From: an uncultured Rhodocyclaceae bacterium
GTDB lineage: Bacteria > Pseudomonadota > Gammaproteobacteria > Burkholderiales > Rhodocyclaceae
Direction: 5' to 3'
Assembly (NCBI GenBank): GCA_964632965.1
Contig: CAZWFC010000001.1
Location: 804 to 64,803, forward strand
Length of the DNA stretch: 64,000 nt
Part shown: positions 18,103-46,928 of the stretch, piece by piece
How positions within the stretch are numbered: the first letter of the stretch is position 1
How the letters are laid out: every line of letters starts with the position of its first letter
Program-made: the position numbers and the translations under genes
Notes under the pieces: generated by a model
Seen by the model: only the letters and a program-made list of their open reading frames with translations
Database searches by the model: none
What the model was told of the DNA's origin: nothing

Positions 18103-18162
18103 GCCGGATTGTCGACCGTCCGCCGCGGCAGCCGCCTGCGGCGGACGATGCCGCCACCCGGC

Positions 18163-18179
18163 TGCGGCAATTTGTCGCA
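18163..18179. promoter_or_regulatory. Candidate RegA-type operator (TGCGGCA-ATT-TGTCGCA)
   Basis: Near-perfect 17-bp palindrome between the TBDR stop (18102) and the second tonB start (18265). Confidence 0.5.
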
Positions 18180-18264
18180 GCGCTGCCGCGGGTGAAGGGA
18201 TTACCCTGTCGCCCTTTCGCACAGGCGGGCGGCGGCATGGCCGGCCGCCTGTAAAATCTGGACC

Positions 18265-18900: not shown

Positions 18901-18903
18901 TTC

Positions 18904-19614: not shown

Positions 19615-19625
19615 GGAACGGCGAT

Positions 19626-20973: not shown

Positions 20974-20989
20974 CCAGCGGGAGGTCGCC

Positions 20990-23107: not shown

Positions 23108-23424
23108 CGAGCCGGCCATCGACCCGCGCCTTCGTGGCACTGGCTGCGGCGGTCGCGGTGTTTTTCCTCACCTTCGCCGATGCCGCGCAACTGGCGCACA
23201 TGCGCGCCGCCGGTCGGGCCGAAGCCGCCGCACTCGCGGCCCGGCTCGGCCTCACCGATCTTGCGCTATTCACGGAGGCGCGCTACACGCGCCATCCGAC
23301 GCAGGCGGATCTGCACTCGGCCTTTCAGGACCACCCGCTCGCCCTGGAGCACTTTCCCACCGGCAGCCTGCTGCCGCCCCAACCTCATGAATCCGTGGAT
23401 CGAAAAGCAGCGCAGCCTGATTGA
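23104..23424 (+). CDS. Hypothetical membrane-anchored protein (106 aa)
   Basis: GTG start forms a GTGA overlap with the SCO1 stop. N-terminal TM helix AFVALAAAVAVFFLTF. The frame is strongly GC3-rich. No family recognised. Confidence 0.5.
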   Translation: MTSRPSTRAFVALAAAVAVFFLTFADAAQLAHMRAAGRAEAAALAARLGLTDLALFTEARYTRHPTQADLHSAFQDHPLALEHFPTGSLLPPQPHESVDRKAAQPD

Positions 23425-24520
23425 CTTCACGCTGGCATCGCTGGCGCGGCGCAAGACCCGCAATCTCGGCCTGCTGGCCGTGTACAGCGTGCTGGTGTTC
23501 GTGCTCGCTTCGGTGATGCTGTTCACCCATGCCCTGCGCCAGGAGGCGACCGCCGTGCTCGCCGGAACGCCGGAGGTGATACTCCAGCGCATGGTCGCCG
23601 GGCGCCACGATCTGATTCCGCCGGGCTACCTGGAGCGCATCGGCCGCATTCGCGGCGTGCAGCGGAAGGAGGGCCGCCTCTGGGGCTACTACTACGATCC
23701 GGTAGTCAAGGCCAACTACACGTTCATGGTGCCGCCGCACGAAGTCACCGACGGCACGCTGCACATCGGCCCGGCGCTGGCGCGCGAGCGCGGGCTGATC
23801 GTCGGCAACACCGTGTCCTTCCGTTCCTATTCGGGCCGGCTGTTCGCCTTCACGGTTTCGGCCGTCCTGCCGCAGCGCTCGGAGCTGGCGAGCGCCGACC
23901 TGGTGCTGCTGTCCGAGAAGGACTTCCGCGCCTTTTTCGAGTATCCGGCGGGGCATTACACGGATATCGCGCTGTCGGTGGCCAATCCGCAGGAAGTGCG
24001 CACCGTGGCGACCAAACTGGCGAGTGCGTTGCCCGATGCGCGCCCCATCCTGCGCGAGGAAGTGCTGCGCACTTATGCGTCGATCTTCGACTGGCGCGAG
24101 GGCATCGTGCTGACTGTGCTGTCGGGCGCGCTGTTCGCCTTCGCCATCCTCGCCTGGGAAAAGGCGTCGGGACTCTCGGCCGACGAGAAGCGCGAGATCG
24201 GCATCCTCAAGGCCATCGGCTGGGAAACCGGCGACGTCATCAAGATGAAGTTCTGGGAGGGGGCGCTGATCTCGCTCAGCGCCTTCCTGCTGGGTTACGT
24301 CGCCGCCTACCTGCATGTGTTCCGTTTCGATGCCACCCTGTTCGAACCGGTGCTCAAGGGCTGGGCGGTGCTCTACCCGCGCTTTTCGCTGACGCCGGCC
24401 ATCGACGGCCTCGCCGTGGCGACGCTGTTCTTCTTCACGGTGGTGCCTTATACAGCGGCGGTGCTGGTGCCGATCTGGCGCGCGGCGATCACCGATCCGG
24501 ACGCGGTGATGCGGGCATGA
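23387..24520 (+). CDS. ABC transporter permease, FtsX/MacB-type
   Basis: ORF 23180..24520 trimmed to ATG 23387 (MNPWIEKQRSLIDFTLASLARRKTRNLGLLAV). It has a large periplasmic loop and a C-terminal FtsX-type 3-TM bundle (REIGILKAIGWETGDVIKM). Confidence 0.8.
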   Translation: MNPWIEKQRSLIDFTLASLARRKTRNLGLLAVYSVLVFVLASVMLFTHALRQEATAVLAGTPEVILQRMVAGRHDLIPPGYLERIGRIRGVQRKEGRLWGYYYDPVVKANYTFMVPPHEVTDGTLHIGPALARERGLIVGNTVSFRSYSGRLFAFTVSAVLPQRSELASADLVLLSEKDFRAFFEYPAGHYTDIALSVANPQEVRTVATKLASALPDARPILREEVLRTYASIFDWREGIVLTVLSGALFAFAILAWEKASGLSADEKREIGILKAIGWETGDVIKMKFWEGALISLSAFLLGYVAAYLHVFRFDATLFEPVLKGWAVLYPRFSLTPAIDGLAVATLFFFTVVPYTAAVLVPIWRAAITDPDAVMRA

Positions 24521-25191
24521 TCGAACTCAAGGATATCCGCAAGGCCTTCAACCAGGGCCGGCCAAACGAATACTGGGCGCTGTCGGGCATCGATCTCGCC
24601 ATCGAGGCCAACCGCGTCACCGCCTTTCGCGGCCCCAGCGGCTCGGGCAAGACGACGCTGCTGACCCTCGTCGGCTGCCTGGCGCGGCCGACCTCGGGCC
24701 GCGTACGCCTGAAGGGCGAGGATATTTCGGGCTTGCCCGAACGCTTCCTTACCGAAATTCGCCGCCGCACCTTCGGCTTCGTCTTCCAGCAGTTCAACCT
24801 GATCAAGGGACTTTCGGCGCTCGATAACGTCATGTTGCCGGCGGCGCCGACGGGACGCCCCCACCGTGAGGTGCGCGAACAGGCGACGGCGTTGCTGGAT
24901 CGATTGCATCTGGCCCATCGCCGCGAGGCGCGCGTCGAATGGCTGTCCGGCGGCGAGCAGCAGCGCGTCGCCATCGCCCGCGCCCTGATCAACGATCCCG
25001 AGGTGGTCATCGCCGACGAGCCGACCGCCAATCTCGACACGGCGCTGTCGCTGCAGTTCATGAACATACTCGAAGAGCTGAGCGCCGAAGGCCGCACGGT
25101 GCTACTGACCAGCCACGATCCGCTGGTGGTCGAATCCATCGCCGTGCATCGCGTCGTCAGCATGCGCGACGGGCGGTTGGTCGAGTCGTGA
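24517..25191 (+). CDS. ABC transporter ATP-binding protein (MacB/LolD-like)
   Basis: Walker A GPSGSGKTT, signature LSGGEQQRVAIARAL, Walker B VVIADEPT. ATGA overlap with the permease. Confidence 0.9.
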   Translation: MIELKDIRKAFNQGRPNEYWALSGIDLAIEANRVTAFRGPSGSGKTTLLTLVGCLARPTSGRVRLKGEDISGLPERFLTEIRRRTFGFVFQQFNLIKGLSALDNVMLPAAPTGRPHREVREQATALLDRLHLAHRREARVEWLSGGEQQRVAIARALINDPEVVIADEPTANLDTALSLQFMNILEELSAEGRTVLLTSHDPLVVESIAVHRVVSMRDGRLVES

Positions 25192-26186
25192 TCTTTCAGC
25201 CGGCGATCATCGCGCTGCTGCTCGCCTCCGGGCTGGGCGTGGCGATGCTGCTGGCCGCCGCACCGTTCGCGCTGCAAGTGATTCGCCGCTGGGATATCGC
25301 CAGCGGCTCCGAACTGCAACTGCAACTGGAGCGACGCACCTACCTCTTCTCCACGCTGCTCAGTTTCGTTTTCGCCATCCAGTTGGTCGCCCTGCTGCTG
25401 TTCATTTTCAACGCCGACAAGATGGCGGTGATGTTCGTCGGCGCCATGTGCGCGGTCGGCACCTTGAATGCCAATGCCTGGGGGTTTCCGGCGCTGATCG
25501 CACAGATGGCGGTTTTCTTCCTCGCCGCCATGTGGCTGGCGATCAACCATGTCGATGTCCGTGCCCCGGACTATCCGCTGGTGCGGATCAAGTACGGCCT
25601 GCTGGTAGCCCTGCTGCCGGTGCTCGCCGCGGCTTTCGCGTTCCAGTTGGCGTACTTCCTCGGTCTCAAGGCCGACGTCATCACCTCCTGCTGCGGCAGC
25701 CTGTTCTCGGGCGAGACGAAGGGGTTGTCGGGCGACCTCTCGGCATTGCCGCCCGGCCCGGCACTGGCGGGCTTCTACGCCGCGCTGGCGTGCGCCGTCG
25801 CTGCGGCCGGCTATTGCGCCCGGCGGCAGCGCGGCGGCTATCTCGTCGCCCTCGCCAGTGCCGCCGCTTTCGCCGCCGCCATCGCTGGCATTCTTTCCTT
25901 TCTCTCGCTTTACCTCTACGAGCATCCTCATCACCACTGCCCGTTCTGCATTCTCAAGCCGGAATACGACCGCCAGGGCTACTGGCTCTACATTCCCATC
26001 TTCGCCGCCACGGCGGCGGGTCTGGGCGTCGGCGCCATCCAGCCGTTTCGCCGCGTGGCAAGCCTTGCCGGGATTGTTCCAGCGGTTTCGGCCCGGCTGG
26101 CGGCGGTGGCGGTCGGCGGTTTCCTGTTGTTCGCCGCCATTGCTTCGGTGATGATCTGGCGATCCAACCTGATTCTTCTCGAATGA
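25188..26186 (+). CDS. Hypothetical polytopic membrane protein with SCCGS and HPHHHCPFC motifs
   Basis: GTG 25188 forms a GTGA overlap with the ATPase stop. 332 aa, about 8 hydrophobic helices. No family recognised. Confidence 0.6.
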   Translation: MIFQPAIIALLLASGLGVAMLLAAAPFALQVIRRWDIASGSELQLQLERRTYLFSTLLSFVFAIQLVALLLFIFNADKMAVMFVGAMCAVGTLNANAWGFPALIAQMAVFFLAAMWLAINHVDVRAPDYPLVRIKYGLLVALLPVLAAAFAFQLAYFLGLKADVITSCCGSLFSGETKGLSGDLSALPPGPALAGFYAALACAVAAAGYCARRQRGGYLVALASAAAFAAAIAGILSFLSLYLYEHPHHHCPFCILKPEYDRQGYWLYIPIFAATAAGLGVGAIQPFRRVASLAGIVPAVSARLAAVAVGGFLLFAAIASVMIWRSNLILLE

Positions 26187-26280: not shown

Positions 26281-26799
26281 ATGTCAGACACCAAATCCGC
26301 CATTGCCGAGTTGTATCGCGAACATTACGGAAGCGTTCATCGTTTCCTCGCAAAGCAGGTGTCTTGCCGCGAACTCGCCGCCGATCTGGTGCAGGAACTG
26401 TTCCTGCGCCTGCTGTCGCGGGAAGTGGCCATGGCGGACGTGCGCCATCCGCGCGGCTTCCTGTTTTCCTCGGCGCGGAACATGGCCGCCGAAGCGCAAC
26501 GCTCGCCACGCTGGCGTGGCACGCCCAGAGTCGATGGGGACGAGGACGAGCCAGCCGATACCGCGCCATCGCCCGACCTTCTGGCGGAAGACCGGCAAGC
26601 CCTTGGCTTGCTGCTGGAAGTGGTGGCCGGGCTGCCGCCCCGCTGCCGCGAAACCTTCATCCTGCACAAGTTCGAAGGACTCTCCTATCCTGAGATTGCA
26701 GCCCGGCTCGGCATCTCGGTGAGTGCCGTCGAGAAGCACCTGATGCGGGCGCTCGATGCCTGTCGTGCCGGGATTGATCGACAGGGCAACGTCCCATGA
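26281..26799 (+). CDS. ECF sigma-70 factor (FecI-like)
   Basis: Region 2 (DLVQELFLRLL) and region 4 (FEGLSYPEIAARLGISVSAVEKHLMRAL). Confidence 0.85.
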   Translation: MSDTKSAIAELYREHYGSVHRFLAKQVSCRELAADLVQELFLRLLSREVAMADVRHPRGFLFSSARNMAAEAQRSPRWRGTPRVDGDEDEPADTAPSPDLLAEDRQALGLLLEVVAGLPPRCRETFILHKFEGLSYPEIAARLGISVSAVEKHLMRALDACRAGIDRQGNVP

Positions 26800-27737
26800 G
26801 CCACGCCGATGTCGCTCAGGAGGCTTTGCGCTGGTTCATCCGTGCCCGGGCTCCCGACTTTTGCCCCGAGGAGCAGCGCGCCTTGGACACATGGCTGACG
26901 GGCGACGTCGTCCACCAACGGGAATTCGACCGCCTCAAAGACACTTGGCGGACGCTCGACGGACTTGCCCCACATCTGCCTGCCCTGCGGCAGCCTCGGC
27001 CCGCTGCGGAAATAGTAGCCCCGCCCCGCTGGCGAGGATTTCTCCCCTGGTCCGGCCTGGGCGCCGCCCTGGCCGTGGCGCTGCTGGTTTTCCTCATTCC
27101 CGTCCCGGTGGAAAGCCTGCGTTACGAAACGACCCCCGGCCAGCATCGCAGCATCGCCCTCGCGCCGCGCATGGAACTCGTGCTCGATGCCGACAGCGCC
27201 GTCACTATCGCCCGAAGCAATCCCCCGCGCGTTCAACTCTTACAGGGGAAGGCGTATTTCGACATCGGCGACCATGCCTCGCATGGGTTGGAGGTCAGTC
27301 TGGGCAGCGTGCGCATCAAGGACATCGGTACCCGATTCGCCGTGGTGCGAAGGCCGGAAGGCGGCAGTGTCGCCGTGGCCGAGGGCCTGGTGGAGGTCCA
27401 TGTGGGTGGCGGTCTGCACCTCGTCAGTCCCGGTCAGCGCGTAGAGTTCGACCAAACCCGCATCACCGGCGAAACGGCTATCGCCGCGAGCGACGTGGCG
27501 CCCTGGCGCCTCGGTCAATGGCGTTTCGCCGCCACGCCCCTAGCCGAGGTGGCGGACGAAATGGCCCGCCAGACTCGCATCCGGCTCGATATTCCGGACC
27601 CGAAAGTCGCCGCGCTGACCGTCAGCGGCAACTTCGACATGCAGCAGCCGGAACAAGTGCTCTGGGCCGTCGCCCAGGTGCATGGACTCAAGGTGGAACC
27701 CATCGGAGAGCGCCGGTTCGTTATGAAACGGCGTTAA
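26796..27737 (+). CDS. FecR-family anti-sigma / signal transducer
   Basis: ATGA overlap with the sigma gene. N-terminal block ALRWFIR...EQRALDTWL, a central TM helix and a C-terminal FecR domain (LLQGKAYFDI...IKDIGTRFAV). Confidence 0.85.
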   Translation: MSHADVAQEALRWFIRARAPDFCPEEQRALDTWLTGDVVHQREFDRLKDTWRTLDGLAPHLPALRQPRPAAEIVAPPRWRGFLPWSGLGAALAVALLVFLIPVPVESLRYETTPGQHRSIALAPRMELVLDADSAVTIARSNPPRVQLLQGKAYFDIGDHASHGLEVSLGSVRIKDIGTRFAVVRRPEGGSVAVAEGLVEVHVGGGLHLVSPGQRVEFDQTRITGETAIAASDVAPWRLGQWRFAATPLAEVADEMARQTRIRLDIPDPKVAALTVSGNFDMQQPEQVLWAVAQVHGLKVEPIGERRFVMKRR

Positions 27738-27884
27738 GCCGCGCGTCATTTGCCGCCCGATCGCGCACGCAAGCATGAAGAACGCAAGGGTGCGGCATCG
27801 TGTCACATGAGGTATCAGCCCTCTCGGCGCATCTCCCCGACTGTAGCTGCAAATCCGGCAGCCGAAACATTAGCGGGGATCACC

Positions 27885-30326
27885 ATGCAAGACCGAAAGA
27901 CAGCATTGCAACACGTCCGTCGTCATCTGGTTTACGTCGTGTTGCGCCGTACCGCCTTGTGCCCGGCCCTCGTCCTGGCCGGCATCATTCAAGCGCCCAC
28001 TGTGCTGGCCCAGGCCGAGTTGCCTGCCATCAGCATCCCGGCGCAGCCGCTGGGCGCGGCCCTTGACGCCCTGGCTGTCCAGGCGCGATTCAAACTGCTG
28101 TATTCGCCCGACGCCGTAAAAGGCAAGACGGCCCCGGCGCTGGCCGGCCGCCTCTCTCCAGACGAGGCTCTGCGTCGTTTGCTTGCGGGCTCGGGCTTGA
28201 CCTATTCGGGCGCGGATGGAGCTTATGCGATCAAGGAAGCGACAGTCGAAAAGCTCACCAAGCTCAGCGATATCGTCGTCAAGGGCCTGCGGGCGGAAAC
28301 GGACGGAACGGGGTCGTACACCAGCCCAGCGCTTACCGTGGCGGGCAAGGTTCCCCTGCCAATGAAGGAGATTCCCAACTCGGTGTCCGTCCTGACCCGG
28401 CAGCAGATGGACGACCAGAACATGGTATCGGTCTGGGATGCCATGACCCAGATCGCTGGCGTCCAGCCCATCTGGAACGACAACCTTCAAGGCCAATACC
28501 ATGCTCGCGGCAATGCGCTGGACATCCGCTACGATGGCGTGCCGTCCCTGTTTCCCTTCAGTGGCAACCGCCAGTTCGACCTGGCGATTTACGATCGCAT
28601 CGAGGTGCAGCGGGGTTCGGCGGGTTTGCTGCAAGGCTCGGGTTCCTTTGCCGGGACGGTGAACATGGTCAAGAAACGGCCGCGGGACAGCTTCGGCGCC
28701 TATGTTCTTGGCACCGTCGGATCTTGGAACAACAAGAAAATTGAAGCCGATGTAACCGGCCCGCTGAACGAAGACAAAAGCGTGCGCGGAAGGTTTGTCG
28801 CCTCGGCCATCGACAAGGACTGGTTCGTCAATCGGGTCTATGACAAAAGTTGGTTAGCCTATGGCGTCCTGGAAGTCGACCTGTCGCCGGCAACGACCGT
28901 TCGGGTGTCGACAACGGGACAGCGTGACGAAACCCCCTCGTTTTCGGGGCTCCCGACCTACACCAATGGAACACTGCTCAACGTCGATCGGTCATTCAAC
29001 CATCTCCCGACCTGGAACAAGACGCTATGGCGCTCGGCCGATCTCAGCGCCGAGATCGAGCATCGCTTCGACAACCGCTGGGTGGGCAAAGTCAGCGTCA
29101 TCCAACGCGATGCATTCCAGCATTTCAAGGACGCCTACCTGACCACCGGCGTCAATCCGCTCACCAACACCGCCACCTACACGCGTCGGGAATTCGACTA
29201 CCACTACCGTTCGGAGGACCTCGATGCCTACGTTTCCGGCCCCTTCGAATTGCTGGGCCGGACCCACAACCTCCTGCTCGGCGCTAATTACAGTTGGTAC
29301 CGGAGCGCCGGCAAAGGGGTCAATCGCAACCAGACGGGGATGGCGGCTGTACTGGACGTAACGAACGTCGTTTTCAACGATCCGCCGAATGTTCCGGAAA
29401 TTAACGTCGGCTTCAGGACTGGTAGCGAAAACATCACTTGGCAGCAAGGACTTTACGGACAAGTTCGTCTCAGCCTTGCCGATCCGCTGACCCTGGTACT
29501 GGGCGGGCGCTCCACCGACTACTATGCCAAATCGCACAACGTGGCCCCCGCCGCACAGACGGGCTGGACTCCGGGCACCACCATTCGGCATCACATCACG
29601 CCCTACGCCGGTACGGTCTACGATCTGACCAAGCAGGTTTCTCTGTACGCCAGCTATTCGGATGTCTTTGTCCCGCAGAGCAATCTTCAGTCCGACGGTA
29701 CGCCGTTGAAGCCCCGCGAGGGACGCCAATATGAAATCGGCGCCAAGGGCGAATTCTTCGACGGCAAGTTGACGCCTTCGTTTGCCGTTTTCAACATCCG
29801 GGACGAGAACCGGTCGTATGCCGACCCTAATTATCCTGGCTTTTATCTTCCCCTCGGAAAAGTCGAGAGCAAGGGGTGGGAAACCGAAATCGCCGGCAGC
29901 CCCGCACGCGGCTGGGATATTTCCACGAGCTATACCAACCTCATTACGCGGCAGTTGAGCACTTCGACCGCCGCATCGATGGGTGCGCCCATCAGCTACT
30001 GGTATCCGCGGCATCTCTTCAAGCTCTGGTCGAACTACCGCTTCCAGGACGGACAACTGGACGGCTTCAACGTCGGCTTTGGGTTGAACGGTCAAAGCCA
30101 TACCGCCAGCGGGACGTCGACGGCCACCGAGCAGGCGCGCGAACAAGGCGCCTACACGGTGGCCAGCATCCAGGTCGGCTACAAGATCAACAAGACATTC
30201 ACCACCACGCTGACCGTAAACAATCTGTTTGACCGGGCCTATTTCACCCGTGTTCAGGGCACCAACAGCTACATGATGTATGGCGAACCCAGAAACTGGC
30301 TGCTGGCGGTTCGCGCGGCCTACTGA
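27885..30326 (+). CDS. TonB-dependent receptor with N-terminal STN signalling domain (transducer type)
   Basis: ORF 27750..30326 trimmed to ATG 27885. STN block ISIPAQPLGAALDALAVQARFKLLYSPDAVKGKTAPALAGRLSPDEALRRLLAGSGLTY, followed by plug and barrel. The C-terminus is ...AVRAAY. Confidence 0.85.
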   Translation: MQDRKTALQHVRRHLVYVVLRRTALCPALVLAGIIQAPTVLAQAELPAISIPAQPLGAALDALAVQARFKLLYSPDAVKGKTAPALAGRLSPDEALRRLLAGSGLTYSGADGAYAIKEATVEKLTKLSDIVVKGLRAETDGTGSYTSPALTVAGKVPLPMKEIPNSVSVLTRQQMDDQNMVSVWDAMTQIAGVQPIWNDNLQGQYHARGNALDIRYDGVPSLFPFSGNRQFDLAIYDRIEVQRGSAGLLQGSGSFAGTVNMVKKRPRDSFGAYVLGTVGSWNNKKIEADVTGPLNEDKSVRGRFVASAIDKDWFVNRVYDKSWLAYGVLEVDLSPATTVRVSTTGQRDETPSFSGLPTYTNGTLLNVDRSFNHLPTWNKTLWRSADLSAEIEHRFDNRWVGKVSVIQRDAFQHFKDAYLTTGVNPLTNTATYTRREFDYHYRSEDLDAYVSGPFELLGRTHNLLLGANYSWYRSAGKGVNRNQTGMAAVLDVTNVVFNDPPNVPEINVGFRTGSENITWQQGLYGQVRLSLADPLTLVLGGRSTDYYAKSHNVAPAAQTGWTPGTTIRHHITPYAGTVYDLTKQVSLYASYSDVFVPQSNLQSDGTPLKPREGRQYEIGAKGEFFDGKLTPSFAVFNIRDENRSYADPNYPGFYLPLGKVESKGWETEIAGSPARGWDISTSYTNLITRQLSTSTAASMGAPISYWYPRHLFKLWSNYRFQDGQLDGFNVGFGLNGQSHTASGTSTATEQAREQGAYTVASIQVGYKINKTFTTTLTVNNLFDRAYFTRVQGTNSYMMYGEPRNWLLAVRAAY

Positions 30327-30335
30327 TCGATCTGC

Positions 30336-30917
30336 ATGAAATCGGAGAACCGCATGGACAGAAGAACCCTGTTGCGCAGCGCCTTGCTGCTGGCCGCCTC
30401 GACCCAGGTTGGCGCGGGCGAGACGACGGAACCGGCGCTCGACCCCGCGCCGCTGGAAAACGAACTGGAGAAATATTCCCGTTGCGTCATTTGCAACATG
30501 GATCGCCGCAAGTTCCACTTTGCGCGGCATCTGCTGCACTACGGCGACGGTCATGCCCAAGGTACTTGCTCGATCAACTGCGCCGCCGAGTGCATGCTGA
30601 AGGAACGTCGCCGTGGATTCCAGGTCATCTATGCGCCGGACTACGGCGCGGAAGGCGAACCCAAGCCGCTAATCGAAGCGTCTGCGGCGGCCTACCTGAT
30701 CGGCAGCGACTTGCGCGGAGTCATGACCCCCGTCAGCAAATACGCCTTCGCGACTCTGGATGCAGCCCAGAAAGCGCAGACGGTTGCCGGCGGCAAGATC
30801 GGCAGTTTTGCCGATGCGATCAATGCCTCGTTCGGAGAATTCGGCGCCGGCGCAATCCGCCGCTACGAAACCGACCGCGACCGCCTGCGGCGCAAGAAGA
30901 CGGAAAGCACAGGCTGA
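30336..30917 (+). CDS. Tat-exported Cys4 (TRASH-like) / NosL-like metal-binding protein, paralog 1
   Basis: Twin-arginine signal MDRRTLLRSALLLAA. Motif C50-VI-C-x24-C-SIN-C82. The C-terminal half resembles NosL (AAAYLIGSDLRGVMTPVSKYAFATLDAAQ). Basic tail. It starts 9 nt after the TBDR stop; the start may instead be ATG 30354. Confidence 0.7.
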   Translation: MKSENRMDRRTLLRSALLLAASTQVGAGETTEPALDPAPLENELEKYSRCVICNMDRRKFHFARHLLHYGDGHAQGTCSINCAAECMLKERRRGFQVIYAPDYGAEGEPKPLIEASAAAYLIGSDLRGVMTPVSKYAFATLDAAQKAQTVAGGKIGSFADAINASFGEFGAGAIRRYETDRDRLRRKKTESTG

Positions 30918-30984
30918 TTGTTGCGCGCTCGCAGGGCGCGCGGAGTGCGCCGGGCGCCCATGATTCTGCATCCGAATCTCGTGC

Positions 30985-32268
30985 TCATCGAATAGGTAAG
31001 GTGCCGCCGTCCGCCGCTTGCCTTGCCGCCGACTTCTGACGGGCGCGACGTTTTTTCCGCCAGACATATACTCCCGTTGCCGCCAGCATGGCGACGGCCA
31101 GGCCGAGGATGCAAACGAAGATGCGGTAGGGCAGGCCGAACACATTGGCTTCGTGCAAGGTTTGCAGCCAGTGGGTAACGGTGCTGCCGCTGTGCTGTCC
31201 GGAAGGAAGCACCAGTTGTCTGAGTTCTCCGGTGTCGGCATCGAAGATTGCTTGCGTGCGTCCACGCTTGTCCTGGAAGTCCAGGCTGCTGTGGACGACG
31301 TAGTGGTAGTTGCCATGTTCGCGGTCGATCCAGAGATTGACCGGGCGTTCGACGACGAAGCCATGGCGTCGCGCTTGCTCAGCCATCAGGCGCTCGGCGG
31401 CTTGTTGCGCCTGCCGCCAGCCAAGCAGGGGATTTTCCACCGGCTTGTCCAGTCTTGAGCCCTCCCAGGGGCGTTGCGGGTAGTCGAGCACCAGGCGGGT
31501 CACCGGCGCATAAACCTGGTCATGCAGATTCATGAAGACGCTCGACCAGGCGAAAATCAGCAGCGGCAGCCACAGCCACAAGCCGCTGGCACGGTGCAAA
31601 TCGAAGTTGATGCGATAGGCGGAAGCCTGCCTCTTCACCAGCCAGGCTGGCTTCCAGCGGACAAGAAAGCTGCGCCGGCCGGACAAATCTCCCGTCGTCG
31701 GCAAAGCCGCGTGGACGTTCTCCCGATCGCTTCGCTTGCGCCGCCTGGCCGGCAAGGTGAGGTACAAACCTGCAAAACAGTCGATGGTCCAGAGCAAGGC
31801 GGTGATGCCGAGGATCCACTTCCCGATGTTTCCAAGCGCCAGGTTGAAGTGCAGTTTGTAGATGAACGGCATGAGGTTGACCCAGCCGGTGGAGATGGCA
31901 CCCCATTGACGGCGTCCCAGTTCGTTCCCGGTATAGGGATCCAGGAATATGGAATTGAAACCCAGTTCGACGGGCCTGCCGGTCAATGGATCGATACGCG
32001 GTGCGAGATACACCAAGGCCGTTCCGGCTTCTCCCAGGAAGACGCCGTTGATGCGTGCCTGCGGGACCAGGCTTTCGGCGCGCTCGGCCAGGGCGGCCTG
32101 ATCCAGCATCTTGCCCGCGTGCGGTGCCGGAAACAGTTGTGGCGCGGTGATGCGGTTCAGTTCGGGTAGAAACGCGAGCAGGCTGCCGGTCAGCCCGGCA
32201 AGCATCAGCGGCAAGGCCATGCCGAGGCCGACGTAGCGGTGCAGGCGGGCCCATAGCCTCCGTGTCAT
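30985..32268 (-). CDS. PepSY-associated TM-helix protein (PiuB/FoxB-like)
   Basis: ORF trimmed to ATG 32268 (MTRRLWARLHRYVGLGMALPLML). LHFNLALGNIGKWILGITALLW, and a terminal TM helix plus a basic tail. Confidence 0.8.
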   Translation of the reverse strand: MTRRLWARLHRYVGLGMALPLMLAGLTGSLLAFLPELNRITAPQLFPAPHAGKMLDQAALAERAESLVPQARINGVFLGEAGTALVYLAPRIDPLTGRPVELGFNSIFLDPYTGNELGRRQWGAISTGWVNLMPFIYKLHFNLALGNIGKWILGITALLWTIDCFAGLYLTLPARRRKRSDRENVHAALPTTGDLSGRRSFLVRWKPAWLVKRQASAYRINFDLHRASGLWLWLPLLIFAWSSVFMNLHDQVYAPVTRLVLDYPQRPWEGSRLDKPVENPLLGWRQAQQAAERLMAEQARRHGFVVERPVNLWIDREHGNYHYVVHSSLDFQDKRGRTQAIFDADTGELRQLVLPSGQHSGSTVTHWLQTLHEANVFGLPYRIFVCILGLAVAMLAATGVYVWRKKRRARQKSAARQAADGGTLPIR

Positions 32269-32343
32269 GGGCAGCACCGGCCGGCGTCGGTCGGTTCGGC
32301 GGCAGTCAGGAAATGCCAAGCCGGGAACTGCCGCGCCATCGTC

Positions 32344-34677
32344 TTAGAACTCGTATTTCAGCGACGCCAGGAAACTGCGGGGCGACCCCGGCATGATCGA
32401 CGTGCGGCTGCCGCCGGAATTCGCGTAGTACTCCTTGTTGAACAGGTTGTTGATGTTCAGTTGCACGGTCATCCGGTGCTGTCCGACACGTTGCGTATAG
32501 GCCGCCATCGCATCGATCCGGCCATAGCCCGGAAGTTGGACGGTATTGTTGGCGTCGGCCTGCCGGGTGCCGATCGCGACGCCGCCCAATCCGGCCTTGA
32601 CGGCATCGTTGACTCGATAGGTGCCCCACAGACTGCCCTGGTTCATCGGCACGTTCTCCAGGCGCATCCCCATCAATCCGTTGTTGTTGCGGGTATACCG
32701 GGCATCGGTGTGCGCATAGGTTGCCAGCAGGTCGAGTTTGCCGGTGACTTGTCCGGCGACGTCGACCTCGACACCCTTGCTCTTGGCTTCCCCGGCCAGG
32801 ATCTGGAACAAGGCGTTGTTGGGGTCGGTGGTCAGCATGTTGTATTTGGTCAGATCGAACAGCGCAACCGTCGATGTGAAGCGTTTGTCCTGCGACTCGG
32901 TCTTGAAGCCGACTTCGTATTGCTTGCCTTTCTGCGGATCGAAGGACTGACCGCTTGCACTCACGCCATTGTTTCCGCCGAACGATTCCGTATAGCTCCC
33001 GTATACCGACAACCAGTTTCTGATCTGATACAGCACGCCGAGACGGGGGCTGAGTTGTTTGTCGGTGCGCTCTATGCGCGCCGCCTTGGCGGTATCCATC
33101 GATACGAGAGAGGACGCCGAACCGGTTTTCACGCTGTCGTGGCGGAGGCCCACCAGAACATGGAGCTTGTCGAGAACCGTGATCTGGTCCTGAACATAGA
33201 GGCCGGACCATGCCTCCTTCCTGTAGAAGTTGTTGTTCGGCGTGATCGCCTCCCAGTTCACGGCGCCATAGACGGGGTTAAGGATATTGATGGTCGGAGC
33301 GGCCATGAATATCTGTGGCAGCGACGCTGTTTCGGCCCAGAAATTGTCCACGCCGACCAGAAAATTGTGCTTGGCACCGAACAGTTCGAATTTGCCGCTC
33401 AAGTCCAGGTTTGTAGCGCTCGTATCGACATTCTGCGTGCCGACCAGCAGGTTTCTGTTCTGCGTGACGTTGTTCGCCTGCAACGCGCCGGCCAGCACGC
33501 CGCGCATGTTGTATTGCCAGTTCTGCTGGTGATAGCGCTGCGTCAGTTTCCAGTCCTCATTGAAACGGTAGGTCCAGTCGAACGCGATGAGCGTGTTGTC
33601 GATGGATGCCCGGAGGGGACCGTCGGACAGGCTCCGGTTGAGCGGGATCGGCGCCGGACGGTTGCCGATGGACGGAATGCCGATGTCGGCCTGAAAACTG
33701 TCGTGTTTGCGTTCGAGTTCGAGATTGGCTTCGAAGTCCTTGGTGGGGCGCCAGGTCAGCGTTGGCGCGACGAACTCCCTCTTGCTGCCGACGAAGTCCC
33801 TGAACGACTCGTTGTCCGTAAAGGATGCGTTAATCCGATAGAGCAGCGTCCGATTTTCGTCGATCGGCCCGGTGGCATCGGCCGAGGTACGGAACTGATG
33901 ATCGGAGCCGAGTTGCTGCTGTATGGCATGGTACGGCGTGTCGAGCGGCTTCTTGGTGACGTAATTGACGAGGCCGCCAGGCTCGATGCGGCCATAGAGG
34001 ATCGCCGCCGGTCCCTTGACCACCTCGATCTGTTCGATGTTGGACAGGTCGTAGATGTCTTGCCGGTTGTAGAGACCATTTCGGTACGCGTCGCCGAAAC
34101 CGCTGCCGGCGAAGCCGCGGATCACGAAGTTATCGTAAAGAGTGCCGCCGCCGGTGCGTGCGAGTACGCCGCTCACATGGCCGTTGATGGCATCGGGCAA
34201 GGTCATGGACTGCTTGTCCTCCAGCACGGCCTTCGGTATCACCTGGATGGAAACTGGCGTGTACAAGAGCGGCGTGTCGGTCTTGGTGGCGGCCGATGCC
34301 CGCTTGACCGCGTATCCCGTTTCTCCGTCATCCCGCACCTCGATCGGCGCCAGTTGCGTCAGCTTTTCCGCTGGCGCCAGTTTGATCGCCACCGCCTTCT
34401 CCGCCGTGAATTGGAAGGACAGTCCGCTGCCGGCCAGCAGTTTCTCCAATGCCTCGCGCGTCGTGAGCGTTCCCCTGAGAGCCGCCGTGCGCTTGCCGTC
34501 CAGCGCCTTGCGGTCGAACAGCAGTTGCAGGTCGGTTTGGCGGGCGAGGGTCTCGACGGCGGCGGCGAGGGTTCCGGCCGGCAGGTCGAGATCGAAGCGC
34601 TTGTCGTCGGCCCAAGCGGCGCCGGCGATGAGGCCGGCGCTGAGCAGCAGGGCGCGGAGCAGGCAGGTGGCGGTCAT
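32344..34677 (-). CDS. TonB-dependent siderophore receptor with STN domain
   Basis: STN block LDLPAGTLAAAVETLARQTDLQLLFD...LLAGSGLSF. Siderophore-receptor-like plug (ASAATKTDTPLLYTPVSIQVI, VVKGPAAILYGRIEPGG). The C-terminus is ...ASLKYEF. Confidence 0.9.
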   Translation of the reverse strand: MTATCLLRALLLSAGLIAGAAWADDKRFDLDLPAGTLAAAVETLARQTDLQLLFDRKALDGKRTAALRGTLTTREALEKLLAGSGLSFQFTAEKAVAIKLAPAEKLTQLAPIEVRDDGETGYAVKRASAATKTDTPLLYTPVSIQVIPKAVLEDKQSMTLPDAINGHVSGVLARTGGGTLYDNFVIRGFAGSGFGDAYRNGLYNRQDIYDLSNIEQIEVVKGPAAILYGRIEPGGLVNYVTKKPLDTPYHAIQQQLGSDHQFRTSADATGPIDENRTLLYRINASFTDNESFRDFVGSKREFVAPTLTWRPTKDFEANLELERKHDSFQADIGIPSIGNRPAPIPLNRSLSDGPLRASIDNTLIAFDWTYRFNEDWKLTQRYHQQNWQYNMRGVLAGALQANNVTQNRNLLVGTQNVDTSATNLDLSGKFELFGAKHNFLVGVDNFWAETASLPQIFMAAPTINILNPVYGAVNWEAITPNNNFYRKEAWSGLYVQDQITVLDKLHVLVGLRHDSVKTGSASSLVSMDTAKAARIERTDKQLSPRLGVLYQIRNWLSVYGSYTESFGGNNGVSASGQSFDPQKGKQYEVGFKTESQDKRFTSTVALFDLTKYNMLTTDPNNALFQILAGEAKSKGVEVDVAGQVTGKLDLLATYAHTDARYTRNNNGLMGMRLENVPMNQGSLWGTYRVNDAVKAGLGGVAIGTRQADANNTVQLPGYGRIDAMAAYTQRVGQHRMTVQLNINNLFNKEYYANSGGSRTSIMPGSPRSFLASLKYEF

Positions 34678-34805
34678 GGCGTATTTCTTCCCTTTGATGA
34701 ACGGTCGATATCCTTACGACGTTCGGGGCAGGGAGAAGTGGACATGCTTGGCGTACTGGCGTTTCCGCAGCACTCCATGACGAGGGGCGACCGGCCTGAT
34801 CCGGT

Positions 34806-35762
34806 TCAGGAAGCCGCTGCGCGCCGCAGGATCACCCGATCCGGCGCCTGGATCTGCGCCCTCACCGGGAACCCGGCTTCGAGCGTCTTCAGGAACAGGT
34901 TGAGATCGGTGATGCGGAAAATTCCGCTGATGCGCAGGTCGGCCAGCGCGGGATCGGCGAGGTCGAAATGCACGGGGTAGTAGCGGACGAGGCGTTCCAG
35001 TACTTCGCCCAAGGGTTCGTTGCGGAAGACCCGCAGCCCTTCCTGCCAGGCGGCGGCCGTAGCGTCCACGGGTACGACCGGAGACACGGCGCCGGCATTG
35101 TCGAAGCCGACGCCCTGACCGGCATCGAGTGCCACGCGGCCGTGCGGGGTGCCGATGTCGACCTTGCCTTCGAGAACGGCGACATGGACATGGCCGTGTT
35201 GCATCTCGACATTGAAGCGGGTGCCCAGATCGACGATACGGCCGGCTCCCGCCGTTACCGCAAAGGGTCGCGACTCGTCGTGCGTGACGGCAAACAGCGC
35301 TTCGCCGCGGACCAGGGTGACGTTGCGCCGCCGGTAGCCGATCCGATGCGTGATCTCGCTGCCGGCGTCGAGGACGACCTTCGAGCCGTCGGCGAGGGTG
35401 AGGATTTTCTGCTGGCCGCGGGCAGTGGCAATGGTTTCGGACACGCCGTTCCACCAGCGGTCGGCCATCACGCCGAGCGGAATCGTCAGCAGGGCGAAGG
35501 CGAACCCGATGGCGGCACCAACCAGAGGGCCGCGACCCAGAATGCGTCGCGGCGGCGGTTTGCAATGACTGCCGGCTTCGGCCAGTTCGCCGGCGATGCC
35601 CCAGGTTCGGGCCACCCGCGCGTAGGCTTGCCGATGTGCCGGGTCGGCCGCCAGCCAGTCGTCTAGTTCCTGCGCATCCTTCCCGCCCCACTCGCCGGAA
35701 TGGGCGGCAACCCACCAGCGGATGGCTTGCCGTTCAGCCGGAGAAAGATTCGGATCGGACAT
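34806..35762 (-). CDS. FecR-family anti-sigma / signal transducer
   Basis: ORF trimmed to ATG 35762 (MSDPNLSPAERQAIRWWV). A TM helix and a FecR domain (LVRGEALFAVTHD...IVDLGTRFNV). Confidence 0.85.
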   Translation of the reverse strand: MSDPNLSPAERQAIRWWVAAHSGEWGGKDAQELDDWLAADPAHRQAYARVARTWGIAGELAEAGSHCKPPPRRILGRGPLVGAAIGFAFALLTIPLGVMADRWWNGVSETIATARGQQKILTLADGSKVVLDAGSEITHRIGYRRRNVTLVRGEALFAVTHDESRPFAVTAGAGRIVDLGTRFNVEMQHGHVHVAVLEGKVDIGTPHGRVALDAGQGVGFDNAGAVSPVVPVDATAAAWQEGLRVFRNEPLGEVLERLVRYYPVHFDLADPALADLRISGIFRITDLNLFLKTLEAGFPVRAQIQAPDRVILRRAAAS

Positions 35763-35837
35763 CGAGGTTGGCTCTGCCGGGGAAGATGGGAGCATATACC
35801 TTACGACGGCCGGGGCGATGCAAAGTGGACAGGGTCA

Positions 35838-36341
35838 TCAATCCGCCAGCCGGGCCAGACAATGGCTCAGGGCGCGTTCGATGTGGCGCTGGACGGTCTT
35901 GGTGGAGACGCCGAGCCGGTCGGCGATCTGGGCATGAGTGAGTCCTTCCAGCCGGTTCAGCAGGAAGGCGTTTCGGCAGGCGGCAGGCAGGTCGTCGAGG
36001 GCGTTCGCCAGCCGTTCCACCTGCCGCCGGGCGTCTATCACGGTTTCGTGACAGGGCTGCGGGCAGATCGGTTCGAAGTCCGCATCGGCAGCGTCGAACA
36101 GGTCTTTGCGCACTTGCTGCCGGCGCCAGGCATCCACCGTCAGGTTGCCGGCCGTGGCGAAGGCGATGGCACGCGGTTCGCGCCATGACTCGGGATTGCC
36201 ATGTTGGTGAAGATTGAGCCAAGTGTCCTGCACGATGTCCTCGGCATCCTGGCTGCCGACACGGCGTGTCACGTAGGAGAGAAGGTCTTCCCTCGCGTCA
36301 TGAAACAGCGAGATCAGAAAATTGGGTTTGTTGGCCGGCAT
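35838..36341 (-). CDS. ECF sigma-70 factor (FecI-like)
   Basis: DAEDIVQDTWLNL and LEGLTHAQIADRLGVSTKTVQRHIERAL. I chose the start at ATG 36341; ATG 36386 is possible. Confidence 0.8.
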   Translation of the reverse strand: MPANKPNFLISLFHDAREDLLSYVTRRVGSQDAEDIVQDTWLNLHQHGNPESWREPRAIAFATAGNLTVDAWRRQQVRKDLFDAADADFEPICPQPCHETVIDARRQVERLANALDDLPAACRNAFLLNRLEGLTHAQIADRLGVSTKTVQRHIERALSHCLARLAD

Positions 36342-36378
36342 CGAGCGCAAATTCTGCCTGCGACACAGCGTATCCGTG

Positions 36379-36395
36379 TGCGGCAAATTGCCGCA
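36379..36395. promoter_or_regulatory. Candidate RegA-type operator (TGCGGCA-AAT-TGCCGCA)
   Basis: Perfect 7-3-7 inverted repeat in the divergent region between the ECF sigma gene and the tlpA-like/Cu-ATPase operon (start 36457). Confidence 0.5.
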
Positions 36396-36456
36396 GAAGG
36401 CCGTGGAGCGGGGTTTGCGCTATGATGCGAACGACTAACTCCGGTGTGCGCCACGC

Positions 36457-36951
36457 ATGAAACTCCTGCTTTTTTCGCTTCTGGTTTTTCTCGGCACCGC
36501 CTGCGGCGGCAACGAAGCACAATCCAAGCTCAACATCGGCGGTATGGCGCCGACATTCCAGACCTACCGGCTCGACGGCGCGCCGGCCCATTTCCCTGCC
36601 GCTTATGCCGGCAAGCCGGTGGTGATCCGTTTCTGGGCCGACTGGTGCAAGTTCTGCGAGGGCGAGATGAAGGCCATCGAGGCGGTCTACCGGCGCCACA
36701 AGGGCCGCGGCCTCGAAGTCCTGGCCGTCAATGCCGGCCAGGACAAGGCCAGCGTCGAGGCCTTCGTGAAGAAGATCGGCATCAGCTATCCGGCGCTGCT
36801 CGACGAGAAATCCGCCATCGCCAGGCAGTACGGCGTGGTGGGGCTGCCGACGACGTACTTCGTCGACGCCAAGGGCATCGTCCGCGCCAAGATCGTCGGC
36901 GAGGCCGACGAGGCCACTTTCGAGCGGCATGTGCTGGACCTGCTGAAATGA
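36457..36951 (+). CDS. TlpA/ResA-family periplasmic thioredoxin-like lipoprotein
   Basis: Lipobox FLGTAC. Active-site motif WADWCKFCEGE. GLPTTYFVD. Confidence 0.85.
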   Translation: MKLLLFSLLVFLGTACGGNEAQSKLNIGGMAPTFQTYRLDGAPAHFPAAYAGKPVVIRFWADWCKFCEGEMKAIEAVYRRHKGRGLEVLAVNAGQDKASVEAFVKKIGISYPALLDEKSAIARQYGVVGLPTTYFVDAKGIVRAKIVGEADEATFERHVLDLLK

Positions 36952-37136
36952 GCGACCCGAACCGGCCCTGCGATCTTTGCGCCCTCGCCGTCGGCATCAA
37001 GCCTTTCGCGTTGCCGACCCCGGGAAAGACGCTCGAATTCTGCTGCGAGGGCTGCAAGGGGATTTACGAAATGTTGCACCAGATCAATGAACCGCCGGCT
37101 GGATCGGCACAGAATGATTCGACCGAATCGCACTAA
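36948..37136 (+). CDS. 62-aa Cys-rich mini-protein resembling the N-terminal metal-binding domain of FixI/CcoI-type ATPases
   Basis: ATGA overlap with the tlpA-like stop. Translation MSDPNRPCDLCALAV...LEFCCEGCKGIYEML (a CxxC ... CCxxC pattern). Confidence 0.6.
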   Translation: MSDPNRPCDLCALAVGIKPFALPTPGKTLEFCCEGCKGIYEMLHQINEPPAGSAQNDSTESH

Positions 37137-37146
37137 GGAGATCGCC

Positions 37147-37503
37147 ATGTTGATGGAAGAAGCTGCCAAACACGCCGCAGGACAGATGCCTGGCATGATG
37201 GGTGGGATGATGACCAATCCGATGGCCCACGGCGCCATGATGGCGGCCACCGGCTTCGCTGCCGGGCGCGGACTGGTCGGCGCGACGCTGTTCCGCAATC
37301 CGCTGCTGCTGCTGGCTGGCGGCATTGCCGTCGGTTACCTGCTGCACAAGTACGAAAAGGAAATCGTGCTGGCGGTGACCAAGGCCACGGGCATGGGCAA
37401 GGACTTCGTGTTGCAGCAGCAGGAAAACCTCAACGACCTCGTCGCCGAGGCGCAGCAGACAGAGGCGCAGGAAGGTGCCGCCGCCGCGCCGCCGCAGGGC
37501 TGA
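37147..37503 (+). CDS. Small Met-rich membrane protein (118 aa)
   Basis: ORF 37087..37503 trimmed to ATG 37147, with AGGAG 8 nt upstream. N-terminus QMPGMMGGMMTNPMAHGAMMAATG, then TM helix LLLLAGGIAVGYLL. Confidence 0.6.
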   Translation: MLMEEAAKHAAGQMPGMMGGMMTNPMAHGAMMAATGFAAGRGLVGATLFRNPLLLLAGGIAVGYLLHKYEKEIVLAVTKATGMGKDFVLQQQENLNDLVAEAQQTEAQEGAAAAPPQG

Positions 37504-37510
37504 TCCCGTC

Positions 37511-38167
37511 ATGAACGTAGAGGAATTGGCGCGGCGGATCGTCGTCCGCCACCGGGAGCTTGGTCATTTGCGGCTGGAACTGCCGGCGGAGTTGTGTCGC
37601 GCCGCGACGGCGGCCGTGGTGGAAGGAAGCCTGAGGCAGGTGGAAGGAGTCTATCGCGTCGACTTCGATCTCCCCTCGCGACGGCTGTCGATTCGTTTCG
37701 ACAGCCATGTCTGTACGACCGGCGATGTGGCGCGCCAGTTGAAAACATTGCTGAAGCGGGTGGCGCCTCATTTGCCCGCTTACCTGCCCCCATCGGCCGC
37801 TTCGGCGTCATCGGATGGCGAAGTGCTGGCGAACCATCCGTTCCACAAGGTCGGCGAGCGGGTGCGCGAGGTGGCACGGGAGGCCGCCGCGCGCGTGAAG
37901 GTGGCGCTTGCGGGCCTGAATCCGCCCGCGGTCGCGGAGGGTTCGCTGCAAGCCAAGCTGCAGCCGGTGATCGCCAGTGCGCTCACCGAGAAGGCGATCA
38001 CCAACTTCATCAACGACATCGTCGCCTTCTACCTGATCAAGGTGCATTGGGAACTTATTTCGCAGCGCTGGCTGAAAGACCCGCTCAAGTTCCGCAACGC
38101 CTGGCTGACCACTTTCTACCTCGTCTTCCTGCTCGTGCGTTACCGCAAGCAGGGCGCGAAGAAATGA
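37511..38167 (+). CDS. Hypothetical protein: Cys-less HMA-like N-domain + C-terminal membrane segment
   Basis: ORF trimmed to ATG 37511. The N-domain pattern (LGHLRLELP...[21 protein letters not shown]) parallels the first domain of the downstream ATPase. C-terminal helices [11 protein letters not shown] and [10 protein letters not shown]. Confidence 0.55.
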
Positions 38168-41970: not shown

Positions 41971-41972
41971 GA

Positions 41973-44348: not shown

Positions 44349-44420
44349 CTTGACTTCTCCCTGAGTTGGCAACGATCAGGGTGTAGACGCCGAAGGGTGG
44401 GGTTCACCCAACCCCGGCAT

Positions 44421-46927: not shown

Positions 46928-46928
46928 C

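Follow-up and report, generated by a model that had tools for sequence, protein, structure and literature searches.

We analysed a 64,000-nucleotide stretch of DNA (the window) from an uncultured Rhodocyclaceae bacterium, which encodes three related exported proteins, here called c1, c2 and c3. All three carry a leader of the twin-arginine translocation (Tat) type, four regularly spaced cysteines (Cys4) and a domain of the copper chaperone NosL, and their genes stand among genes for copper handling and for TonB-dependent receptors (TBDRs). These genes, and the second NosL gene that follows c3, are:

c1, 30354-30917, plus strand: Tat-signal Cys4 NosL paralog of 187 residues, reading CVICNMDRR...CSINC; Pfam NosL 44.7 bits; gene call P0121.
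c2, 41362-41970, minus strand: Tat-signal Cys4 NosL paralog with a translation of 202 residues; Pfam NosL 47 bits; gene call P0241.
c3, 47012-47623, plus strand: Tat-signal Cys4 NosL paralog of 203 residues, with a C-terminal helix at residues 167-202; Pfam NosL 44.0 bits.
Sec-signal NosL, 47620-48096, plus strand: 158 residues, without a lipobox; Pfam NosL 107 bits. The stop codon of c3 overlaps its start (ATGA).

An earlier note on this DNA, made from the letters alone, had placed the three paralogs at 30336-30917, 41362-41970 and 47012-47623. The open reading frames (ORFs) are there, but c2 is encoded on the minus strand (read on the plus strand, 41362-41970 is riddled with stops), and c1 most likely starts at 30354 (MDRR), with a GGAG 6 nt 5' of its ATG, not at the first-ATG position 30336; the lengths of 187, 202 and 203 residues come from independent gene calls on identical metagenome contigs. 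All three proteins begin M-D-R-R-x-L-L-(R/K), with the leaders DRRTLLR (c1), DRRELLK (c2) and DRRDLLK (c3), and share C-x2-C-(N/G)-M-D-R-(R/K)...C-S-(I/L)-(N/H)-C with the cysteines spaced C-x2-C-x24-C-x3-C. The note's reading of CxxC(N/G)MDRR in every copy fits c1 and fails for c3, which has CPYCGMDRK. Its twin-arginine leaders and identical cysteine spacing were confirmed, the spacing being exact in 238 of 240 close database homologs, with the remaining two truncated; so was the Arg/Lys-rich C-terminal tail, in which lysine and arginine make up on average 26% of the last 30 residues. Likeness to the NosL at 47620-48096 is also real, at 24-27% identity. Because c1, c2 and c3 are 36-54% identical to one another, they are old paralogs and no chance resemblance.

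The three proteins are relatives of NosL over the whole length of that domain. Each passes the Pfam NosL model PF05573 (44.7, 47.0 and 44.0 bits for c1, c2 and c3, against a gathering score of 24) with a match that spans positions 3/4 to 125/126 of the 131 in the model and has the Cys4 motif inside it. Searching PDB sequences with c3 by itself gave only noise (cytochrome c6, E 1.5), so a family profile was needed to reach NosL, and this profile matched NosL chains at E 1.6e-11 (7og7). An AlphaFold2 model of c3, built from 122 aligned sequences, had a mean predicted local distance difference test score of 88 and a predicted template modelling (TM) score of 0.77. The five best PDB matches of this model in Foldseek were all NosL (7osg_H, 7osj_H, 7znq_L, 7og7 and 7osf_H; E 1.5e-5 to 4.6e-5, target-normalised TM 0.60-0.69), with a root-mean-square deviation (rmsd) of 2.8-3.2 Å for four of them and 5.7 Å for 7osj_H; the leading pair, 7osg_H and 7og7, reached TM 0.64-0.69 at 2.8-2.9 Å, and the first match that was not NosL came at E = 0.7. 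Outside the NosL core the model has a disordered leader, an N-terminal extension and the 36-residue C-terminal helix (167-202) with its basic tail. We conclude that c1, c2 and c3 have, as predicted by the c3 model, the two-domain beta-beta-alpha-beta fold of NosL.

Apart from NosL, no Pfam model of the TRASH clan (YHS, Arc_trans_TRASH, ATPase-cat_bd) matched c1, c2 or c3 at E <= 1, nor did any Pfam zinc finger; NCBIfam held no model for the family, its weak PvdN matches and those to families of ribosomally synthesised and post-translationally modified peptides reflecting the leader only; and the Pfam and NCBIfam scans gave no match to an iron-sulphur (Fe-S) family. Of the NosL, YHS/TRASH and zinc-finger families that the earlier note had named for a search, only NosL was matched. 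The note's TRASH module fused to a NosL-like domain is ruled out, since the Cys4 motif lies within NosL domain 1 and is its metal site, ligand for ligand. Nor is the family as new as it had seemed: with every copy passing the NosL model and more than 1,000 such clusters in the databases, many of them automatically named NosL, c1, c2 and c3 are conserved relatives of the copper chaperone NosL and not a new kind of protein.

What the metal site may bind is suggested by solved NosL. The Shewanella denitrificans protein has a heterobimetallic site, with a structural Zn(II) on Cys59, Cys62, Cys88 and Asp92 and a transferable Cu(I) on Cys62 (bridging), Met64 and Met145; the copper ligands are strictly conserved and essential, and the zinc ligands differ among NosL proteins (PMC8457098). 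Aligning the family profile with 7og7 places CxxCGM over CHLCGM, t-C-S-l-h-C over F-C-S-T-R-D and G-v-M over G-A-M, which gives C59, C62, M64, C87, C91 and M139 as the proposed ligands of c3. Cys59, Cys62, Cys87 and Cys91 of c3 then occupy the Zn(II) positions Cys59, Cys62, Cys88 and Asp92, and Cys62, Met64 and Met139 the Cu(I) positions Cys62, Met64 and Met145. Across the 122-sequence alignment, which takes in all three paralog types and the canonical NosL of the window, C59, C62, M64 and M139 do not vary, and conservation at C87 and C91 is at least 90%; the sole ligand change relative to the Shewanella protein is Asp92 to Cys, at c3 Cys91, in at least 90% of sequences. By alignment, then, the Cys4 motif of the earlier note corresponds to the zinc site of NosL with Asp92 replaced by cysteine, and every Cu(I) ligand is kept. 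The Sec-exported NosL at 47620-48096 retains C, C, M, D and M and has no equivalent of Cys88.

The leaders suggest that c1, c2 and c3 are probably exported through Tat, as the note had proposed. The twin arginine is present in 232 of the 240 close homologs, invariant among c1-type proteins and at least 90% conserved family-wide. Hidden Markov models for Tat signals gave scores around their cutoffs for c3 (TIGR01409, 16.8 bits, cutoff 16.7; Pfam TAT_signal, 22.4 bits, cutoff 22.7), 14.1 bits for c2 and no match for c1. The leaders have the form MDRRxLLK...AxA, and no L-[AS]-[GA]-C lipobox was found in them; we rejected a Tat-lipoprotein, the conserved N-terminal cysteine of c2 and c3 not being within a lipobox, and likewise a C-terminal Tat tail anchor, since Asp and Arg occur in the final helix and a hydrophobic stretch is missing from it. 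Tat export is not general among relatives: of 130 diverse Cys4 representatives, 35 have a twin-arginine leader and 95 showed no such motif and look Sec-type. Because a Sec-exported protein could not carry an Fe-S cluster built in the cytoplasm, the Fe-S cargo that the note had offered as an alternative is unlikely, and we rejected it.

A profile search of 1.84 billion representatives clustered at 50% identity returned 1,156 clusters at E <= 1e-3, 457 at E <= 1e-10 and 88 at E <= 1e-30. Among the 150 best were 147 newly returned proteins, 130 of which carry CxxC.M...CxxxC, nearly all with the same spacing; the Cys4 form of NosL is widespread and, going by these sequences, appears to be mostly Sec-exported. 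A rough neighbour-joining tree of the domain joined the c1, c2 and c3 types and about 15 more twin-arginine representatives in one clade, separate from the Sec-type Cys4 sequences; this Tat form has so far been met mainly in Betaproteobacteria. GTDB contigs, taken at one genome per species, contained 463 stretches that encode a relative. The best 80 of the 463 were nearly all from Betaproteobacteria, their hosts including Rhodocyclaceae, Thauera, Accumulibacter, Propionivibrio, Sulfuricella, Gallionellaceae/Sideroxydans and Methyloversatilis; a c2-type gene also occurs in the methanotroph Candidatus Methylospira mobilis. Where databases name these relatives, the name is nearly always "nitrous oxide reductase accessory protein NosL" or "copper chaperone NosL". 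Many distant relatives are tandem double-NosL proteins of 350-450 residues, usually with the full Cys4 motif in one NosL-like stretch and only CxxC.M in the other (P0357, P0364, P0366, P0368, P0387, P0394, P0397 and P0404, for example).

Around the three paralogs the window encodes the following proteins of known or likely copper and thiol chemistry, together with the genes that accompany them:

SCO1/SenC lipoprotein, 22532-23107, plus strand: CxxxC present as CPDIC.
FtsX-type permease, ORF 23180-24520, plus strand: MacB/LolC-like.
ATP-binding cassette (ABC) ATPase, 24517-25191, plus strand.
Cys-rich membrane protein of 332 residues, 25188-26186, plus strand: CC/CxxC protein that bears SCCG and HHHCPFC; without a match among Pfam and NCBIfam families.
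TlpA/ResA-like redoxin, 36457-36951, plus strand: first gene of a five-gene operon, 36457-40590.
TRASH-like cytoplasmic protein of 62 residues, 36948-37136, plus strand: CxxC...CCxxC, with weak likeness to ATPase-cat_bd/TRASH.
Met-rich protein of 118 residues, 37147-37503, plus strand: methionine-rich stretch MPGMMGGMMTNPM.
Protein of 218 residues, 37511-38167, plus strand: without a family match.
Cu(I) P1B-1 ATPase, 38164-40590, plus strand: TIGR01511 572 bits, cutoff 397; GMTCASC, CPC, N..YN and MALSS motifs.
DsbD_2-family membrane protein, 46226-46927, plus strand, upstream of c3: PF13386 136.8 bits; HCxxMCGG (HCLGMCGG) and MPCS motifs.

We take the four motifs of the ATPase to be the P1B-1 Cu(I) signature. 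The genes for the 62-, 118- and 218-residue proteins (36948-38167) always precede the Cu(I) ATPase gene. The Pfam scans of window ORFs turned up no nosZ, nosD, nosF or nosY, and no nosZ, nosF or nosY is annotated in the Pfam-annotated related loci, in which one unlinked NosD-domain gene was seen; the note's view that the paralogs are not part of a maturation cluster for nitrous oxide (N2O) reductase therefore stands.

Directly upstream of c1 and of c2 lies a receptor cassette, in which an extracytoplasmic function (ECF) sigma factor and a FecR anti-sigma factor are encoded with a TBDR that bears an N-terminal STN signalling domain; the association with STN-type TBDRs proposed in the note thus holds for two of the three paralogs. 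The cassettes and the gene that follows c2 are:

Cassette A, directly upstream of c1, 26281-30326, plus strand: ECF sigma factor 26281-26799, FecR anti-sigma factor 26796-27737, siderophore-type STN-TBDR (TBDR-A) 27885-30326.
Cassette B, directly upstream of c2, 41973-45985, minus strand: ECF sigma factor 45479-45985, FecR 44421-45419, haem/haemoglobin-family STN-TBDR (TBDR-B) 41973-44348.
Further cassette, 30985-36341, minus strand: PepSY_TM protein, STN-TBDR, FecR, sigma factor.
PvdO-like/FGE-sulfatase protein with a Sec signal, 40598-41341, minus strand, directly downstream of c2: PvdO model 174 bits, cutoff 500.

We rejected the PvdO-like protein as a copper-dependent formylglycine-generating enzyme (FGE), since the Cu-binding cysteine pair of LCHxSYC is lost, this stretch reading LSGPQYS. 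Four more TBDRs, without STN, are encoded at 1116-3485, 3988-6072, 11369-13669 and 15895-18102, making seven in 64 kb; that at 15895-18102 comes nearest to the copper-receptor model (TIGR01778, 130.8 bits, below the cutoff of 472). The window also holds a tonB-exbB-exbD set (18265-20042) and, on the minus strand and wedged between TBDR genes, genes for a protein like the D component of 2-hydroxyglutaryl-CoA dehydratase (7702-9957) and its BcrAD/BadFG-type activator ATPase (6783-7643). Third-position GC is 0.82-0.88 in the backbone copper genes (22532-26186, 36457-40590, 46226-48096) and only 0.75-0.79 in the TBDR cassettes with c1, c2 and the PvdO-like gene (26281-36386, 40598-45985), a difference that fits later insertion of the cassettes or a difference in their expression.

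Gene neighbourhoods in other genomes give each paralog its own partner. By tblastn, window proteins were located in 81 genome loci plus a further 50, and neighbours were counted. A Sec-type NosL gene lies directly downstream of c3-type genes in 89 of 90 loci, and their direct upstream neighbour is DsbD_2 in 33 of 88, a redoxin in 15 of 88 and a TBDR in none. For the c2 type, a TBDR gene is upstream in seven of eight loci and the PvdO-like gene downstream in seven of seven; the c1 type has a TBDR upstream in 12 of 21. The earlier note had all three paralogs acting downstream of TBDRs, which is in keeping with the neighbours of the c2 type and of about half of the c1 type and does not hold for c3, which has another NosL as its fixed partner.

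In nearly every case the TBDR cassettes stand within an island made up of the redoxin, the small proteins, the Cu(I) ATPase, DsbD_2, c3, NosL and the ABC module. Island order and orientation vary (for example L091, L092, L097, L099, L102, L103, L107, L117 and Azonexus), and because the linkage between cassettes and island survives this shuffling we argue for a shared function. The five-gene order from redoxin to Cu(I) ATPase recurs in many loci, and the SCO1/FtsX/ABC/332-residue module is also found in Azonexus. In Methylospira mobilis, the genes for sigma factor, FecR, c2, PvdO-like protein, SCO1, a 109-residue protein, FtsX, ABC ATPase, 332-residue protein and NosL follow one another in one direction. 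By analogy, the SCO1-FtsX-ABC-332-residue module and NosL may form an ABC-plus-NosL machine like NosDFY-NosL. The module is conserved as SCO1/SenC (or redoxin), a protein of about 108 residues, FtsX-type permease, ABC ATPase and the 332-residue protein (L089:11582-15729, L084:14731-17875). A related genome has another pairing of DsbD_2 and TBDR, about 3 kb from its c3-NosL pair: this cluster (L082:252-6777) encodes a TBDR, a 300-residue protein, Fer4_5 (CcoG/NapH-like), DsbD_2, TonB, ExbB and ExbD.

Parts of the island share a candidate regulatory element. A palindromic box, GGCAAATTGCCGCAG, lies at 46138-46152 upstream of DsbD_2-c3-NosL, with more copies at 36378-36396 and 18162-18180; a near-perfect 19-bp palindrome, CTGCGGCAAATTGCCGCAG, stands upstream of tonB-exbBD, the redoxin-to-Cu-ATPase operon and DsbD_2-c3-NosL, and five matches were observed where 0.3 were expected. 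It recurs about 75 bp upstream of c3 orthologs of other genomes (L014:9922-9934, L046:8389-8401, L066:9900-9912, L083:425-437 and L128:4211-4223). Its form, GCGGC-N5-GCCGC, presumably resembles the PrrA/RegA/RegR box. A response regulator with REC and a Fis-type helix-turn-helix (20870-21523, plus strand; best NCBIfam match ActR/PrrA/RegA, 147 bits, below the cutoff of 250) is encoded about 1 kb upstream of the SCO1/SenC gene, and regA and senC are linked in Rhodobacter; the regulator is a candidate binder of the palindrome. A scan of the three promoter regions for Fur boxes found none at 12 or more of 19 matches to the E. coli consensus, which may not fit this organism.

We suggest that c1, c2 and c3 are soluble periplasmic NosL-type Cu(I) chaperones, a reading in which our confidence is slightly better than even; the broader claim of the earlier note, of periplasmic metal-handling proteins related to NosL and TRASH, is supported. 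The domain would fold in the cytoplasm, probably around zinc, be exported by Tat and then shuttle Cu(I) in the periplasm, each paralog serving its own partner. c3 would give copper to, or receive it from, the translationally coupled Sec-NosL, and c1 and c2 would serve the TBDR encoded just upstream, at the periplasmic side of the receptor, c2 also with the PvdO-like protein. TlpA keeps the thiols of ScoI reduced, and DsbD_2 and the TlpA-like redoxin could likewise keep the thiolate ligands reduced here. Further stations of one copper-distribution network would be the Cu(I) ATPase, SCO1 and the ABC module of FtsX type, and the network would supply cuproenzymes of the periplasm or membrane, either instead of N2O reductase or in addition to it. 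Copper would on this account be the cargo of the receptors. Taken further, the cassettes of ECF sigma factor, FecR, STN-TBDR and Tat-NosL, with or without the PvdO-like protein, would constitute an undescribed route of copper acquisition, in which the TBDR imports a chalkophore- or porphyrin-like copper chelate and the NosL-type chaperone strips or receives Cu(I) and passes it to the network of Sec-NosL, SCO1 and FtsX-type ABC; this extension we consider doubtful, though if true it would answer how NosL-type chaperones obtain extracellular copper.

Several observations weigh against copper chaperones. TBDR-A passes a siderophore-receptor model and TBDR-B that of the haem family TIGR01785 (381.8 bits against 316.85), so that by NCBIfam both are of siderophore or haem type and not copper type. 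We rejected them as OprC/NosA-type receptors, TBDR-B scoring 43.5 bits with TIGR01778 (cutoff 472) and TBDR-A giving no match at E <= 0.001; and TBDR-A lacks an OprC-like copper site, because its single cysteine is near the N-terminus. For these reasons a chelate is more likely than ionic copper as the cargo. TBDR-B is itself doubtful as a true haem receptor, with FRAP present, no NPNL motif and no histidine between. Cassettes of sigma factor, FecR and STN-TBDR are classically iron systems, and one here is flanked by a PepSY_TM gene. Nine of the 21 c1-type genes stand as orphans among housekeeping genes, for example between thiD and thiE; the Tat model scores are borderline; the change of Asp92 to Cys could alter which metals bind; and metal binding by c1, c2 and c3 is deduced from homology and gene context. 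An NosL-family protein of Haloferax rises 13-fold on iron starvation (PMC11349517).

In a first rival reading the paralogs would be accessories of iron uptake that help to release or reduce iron from an imported chelate, for instance as a rubredoxin-like Fe(Cys)4 or Fe-S electron carrier that needs Tat; the receptor types, the control by ECF sigma factor and FecR, the adjacent PepSY_TM gene, the Tat leader with four cysteines and the Haloferax protein speak for it. We think this unlikely: the same Cys4 spacing occurs in the 95 representatives that are apparently Sec-exported, Met64 and Met139, which never vary, correspond to residues that bind Cu(I) in NosL, c3-type genes go with NosL and with no TBDR, the scan of the three promoter regions gave no Fur-box-like site, and the linked genes encode SCO1, a Cu(I) ATPase and NosL. 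A zinc-finger-like adaptor outside metal traffic, with structural zinc, that tunes signalling between TBDR and anti-sigma factor or escorts the PvdO-like enzyme or Sec-NosL, would suit the usual structural zinc of TRASH and treble-clef Cys4 sites, the fixed gene partners with c3 translationally coupled to NosL, and the long charged C-terminal helix, which is apt for docking. It is improbable, however, in that all three Cu(I)-ligand residues are invariant, including Met139 in a loop without an obvious structural role, and in that the neighbours are copper carriers and not signalling proteins.

The two remaining readings we rate lower still. Many of the host lineages (Thauera, Accumulibacter, Sulfuricella) belong to denitrifier groups, and the database name and the conservation of all copper ligands would agree with ordinary NosL, in spare or specialised copies that mature an N2O reductase encoded elsewhere in the genome. 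This is very unlikely given the absence of annotated nosZ, nosF and nosY in the window and the Pfam-annotated related loci, the lack of a lipobox where NosL is a lipoprotein (PMC8457098), the occurrence of these genes in Gallionellaceae iron-oxidisers and one methanotroph, and the three to four NosL-domain genes per island, which exceed what a single enzyme would be expected to need. Hardly probable, finally, is defence against thiophilic toxic metals (Hg, Ag, Cd, Au) or a thiol-disulfide redox role, in which CxxC would act with DsbD_2 and the redoxin, for all the cysteine-rich neighbours (DsbD_2 with HCxxMCGG, the 332-residue CC/CxxC membrane protein, the redoxin). NosL is reportedly related in structure to MerB, for which PMC8261052 cites Taubner (2006) and Kaur and Subramanian (2014); yet no gene for MerA, MerR, MerP or efflux of the resistance-nodulation-division type lies nearby, the ATPase signature is that of Cu(I) and not of Zn/Cd/Pb, and SCO1 and NosL serve in assembly and not in resistance.

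NosL has been regarded as a helper reserved for N2O reductase, and annotation copies its name onto every PF05573 match. The subfamily described here breaks that assumption: its members are predicted to be soluble, with a Tat-type leader and, by alignment, a full Zn/Cu site, fall into three groups with fixed partners, and are encoded in a copper island. Their hosts include polyphosphate accumulators, iron oxidisers and one methanotroph. Some NosL homologs outside nos clusters may be more widely used chaperones (Prasser et al.). If our reading is true, NosL-type chaperones would be general periplasmic copper couriers, the TBDR/NosL and NosL/NosL gene pairs would be testable hand-over partners, and counts of "nosL" in metagenomes would overestimate the potential for N2O reduction. 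Full-text literature searches turned up no publication that deals with a Tat-type or all-Cys (Cys4) NosL.

Compared with NosL (PF05573; 7OG7, 7OSG, 2HPU), c1, c2 and c3 share the whole domain model and the two-domain fold, with the Cu(I) ligands Cys62, Met64 and Met145 and the Zn ligands Cys59 and Cys88 at aligned positions. They differ in the fourth residue of the zinc site, which is Cys in place of the Asp of NosL; in a twin-arginine leader without a lipobox, where NosL has a lipoprotein signal; in an extra N-terminal extension of about 35 residues and the 36-residue basic C-terminal helix; and in gene context, as their genes in the annotated loci never adjoin nosZDFY and lie instead with TBDR cassettes, a second NosL, DsbD_2, SCO1 and the Cu ATPase. 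Ettema and colleagues reportedly defined the TRASH domain in 2003 by C-x2-C-x19-22-C-x3-C. c1, c2 and c3 have the same order of cysteines and the CxxC(G)M start, but their spacing of 24 is beyond the published 19-22 and the motif lies within a larger two-domain fold and is not free-standing; Kaur and Subramanian, whose 2014 work is cited in PMC8261052, are said to have considered that NosL and MerB derive from duplicated TRASH units.

As in the proposed relay from NosA/OprC to NosL, a TBDR gene is linked to a NosL-type gene, here adjacent and under one set of regulators, although the TBDRs are Cys-poor, STN-bearing and sigma/anti-sigma-controlled and not of OprC/NosA type. The Methylospira gene cluster resembles NosDFY-NosL (7OSF-7OSJ) in that genes for NosL, an ABC ATPase, a permease and one more component of the membrane or periplasm lie together, and the module is also in the window; the permease is FtsX/MacB-LolC-like and not NosY, and there is no NosD beta-helix, so that the likeness is one of gene order only. 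New relative to these systems are the combination of a complete Cys4 zinc site with a Tat leader and a lost lipid anchor, the existence of three old paralog groups, every one of them tied to a fixed partner, and the physical coupling to sigma/anti-sigma-controlled TonB receptors within a copper island.

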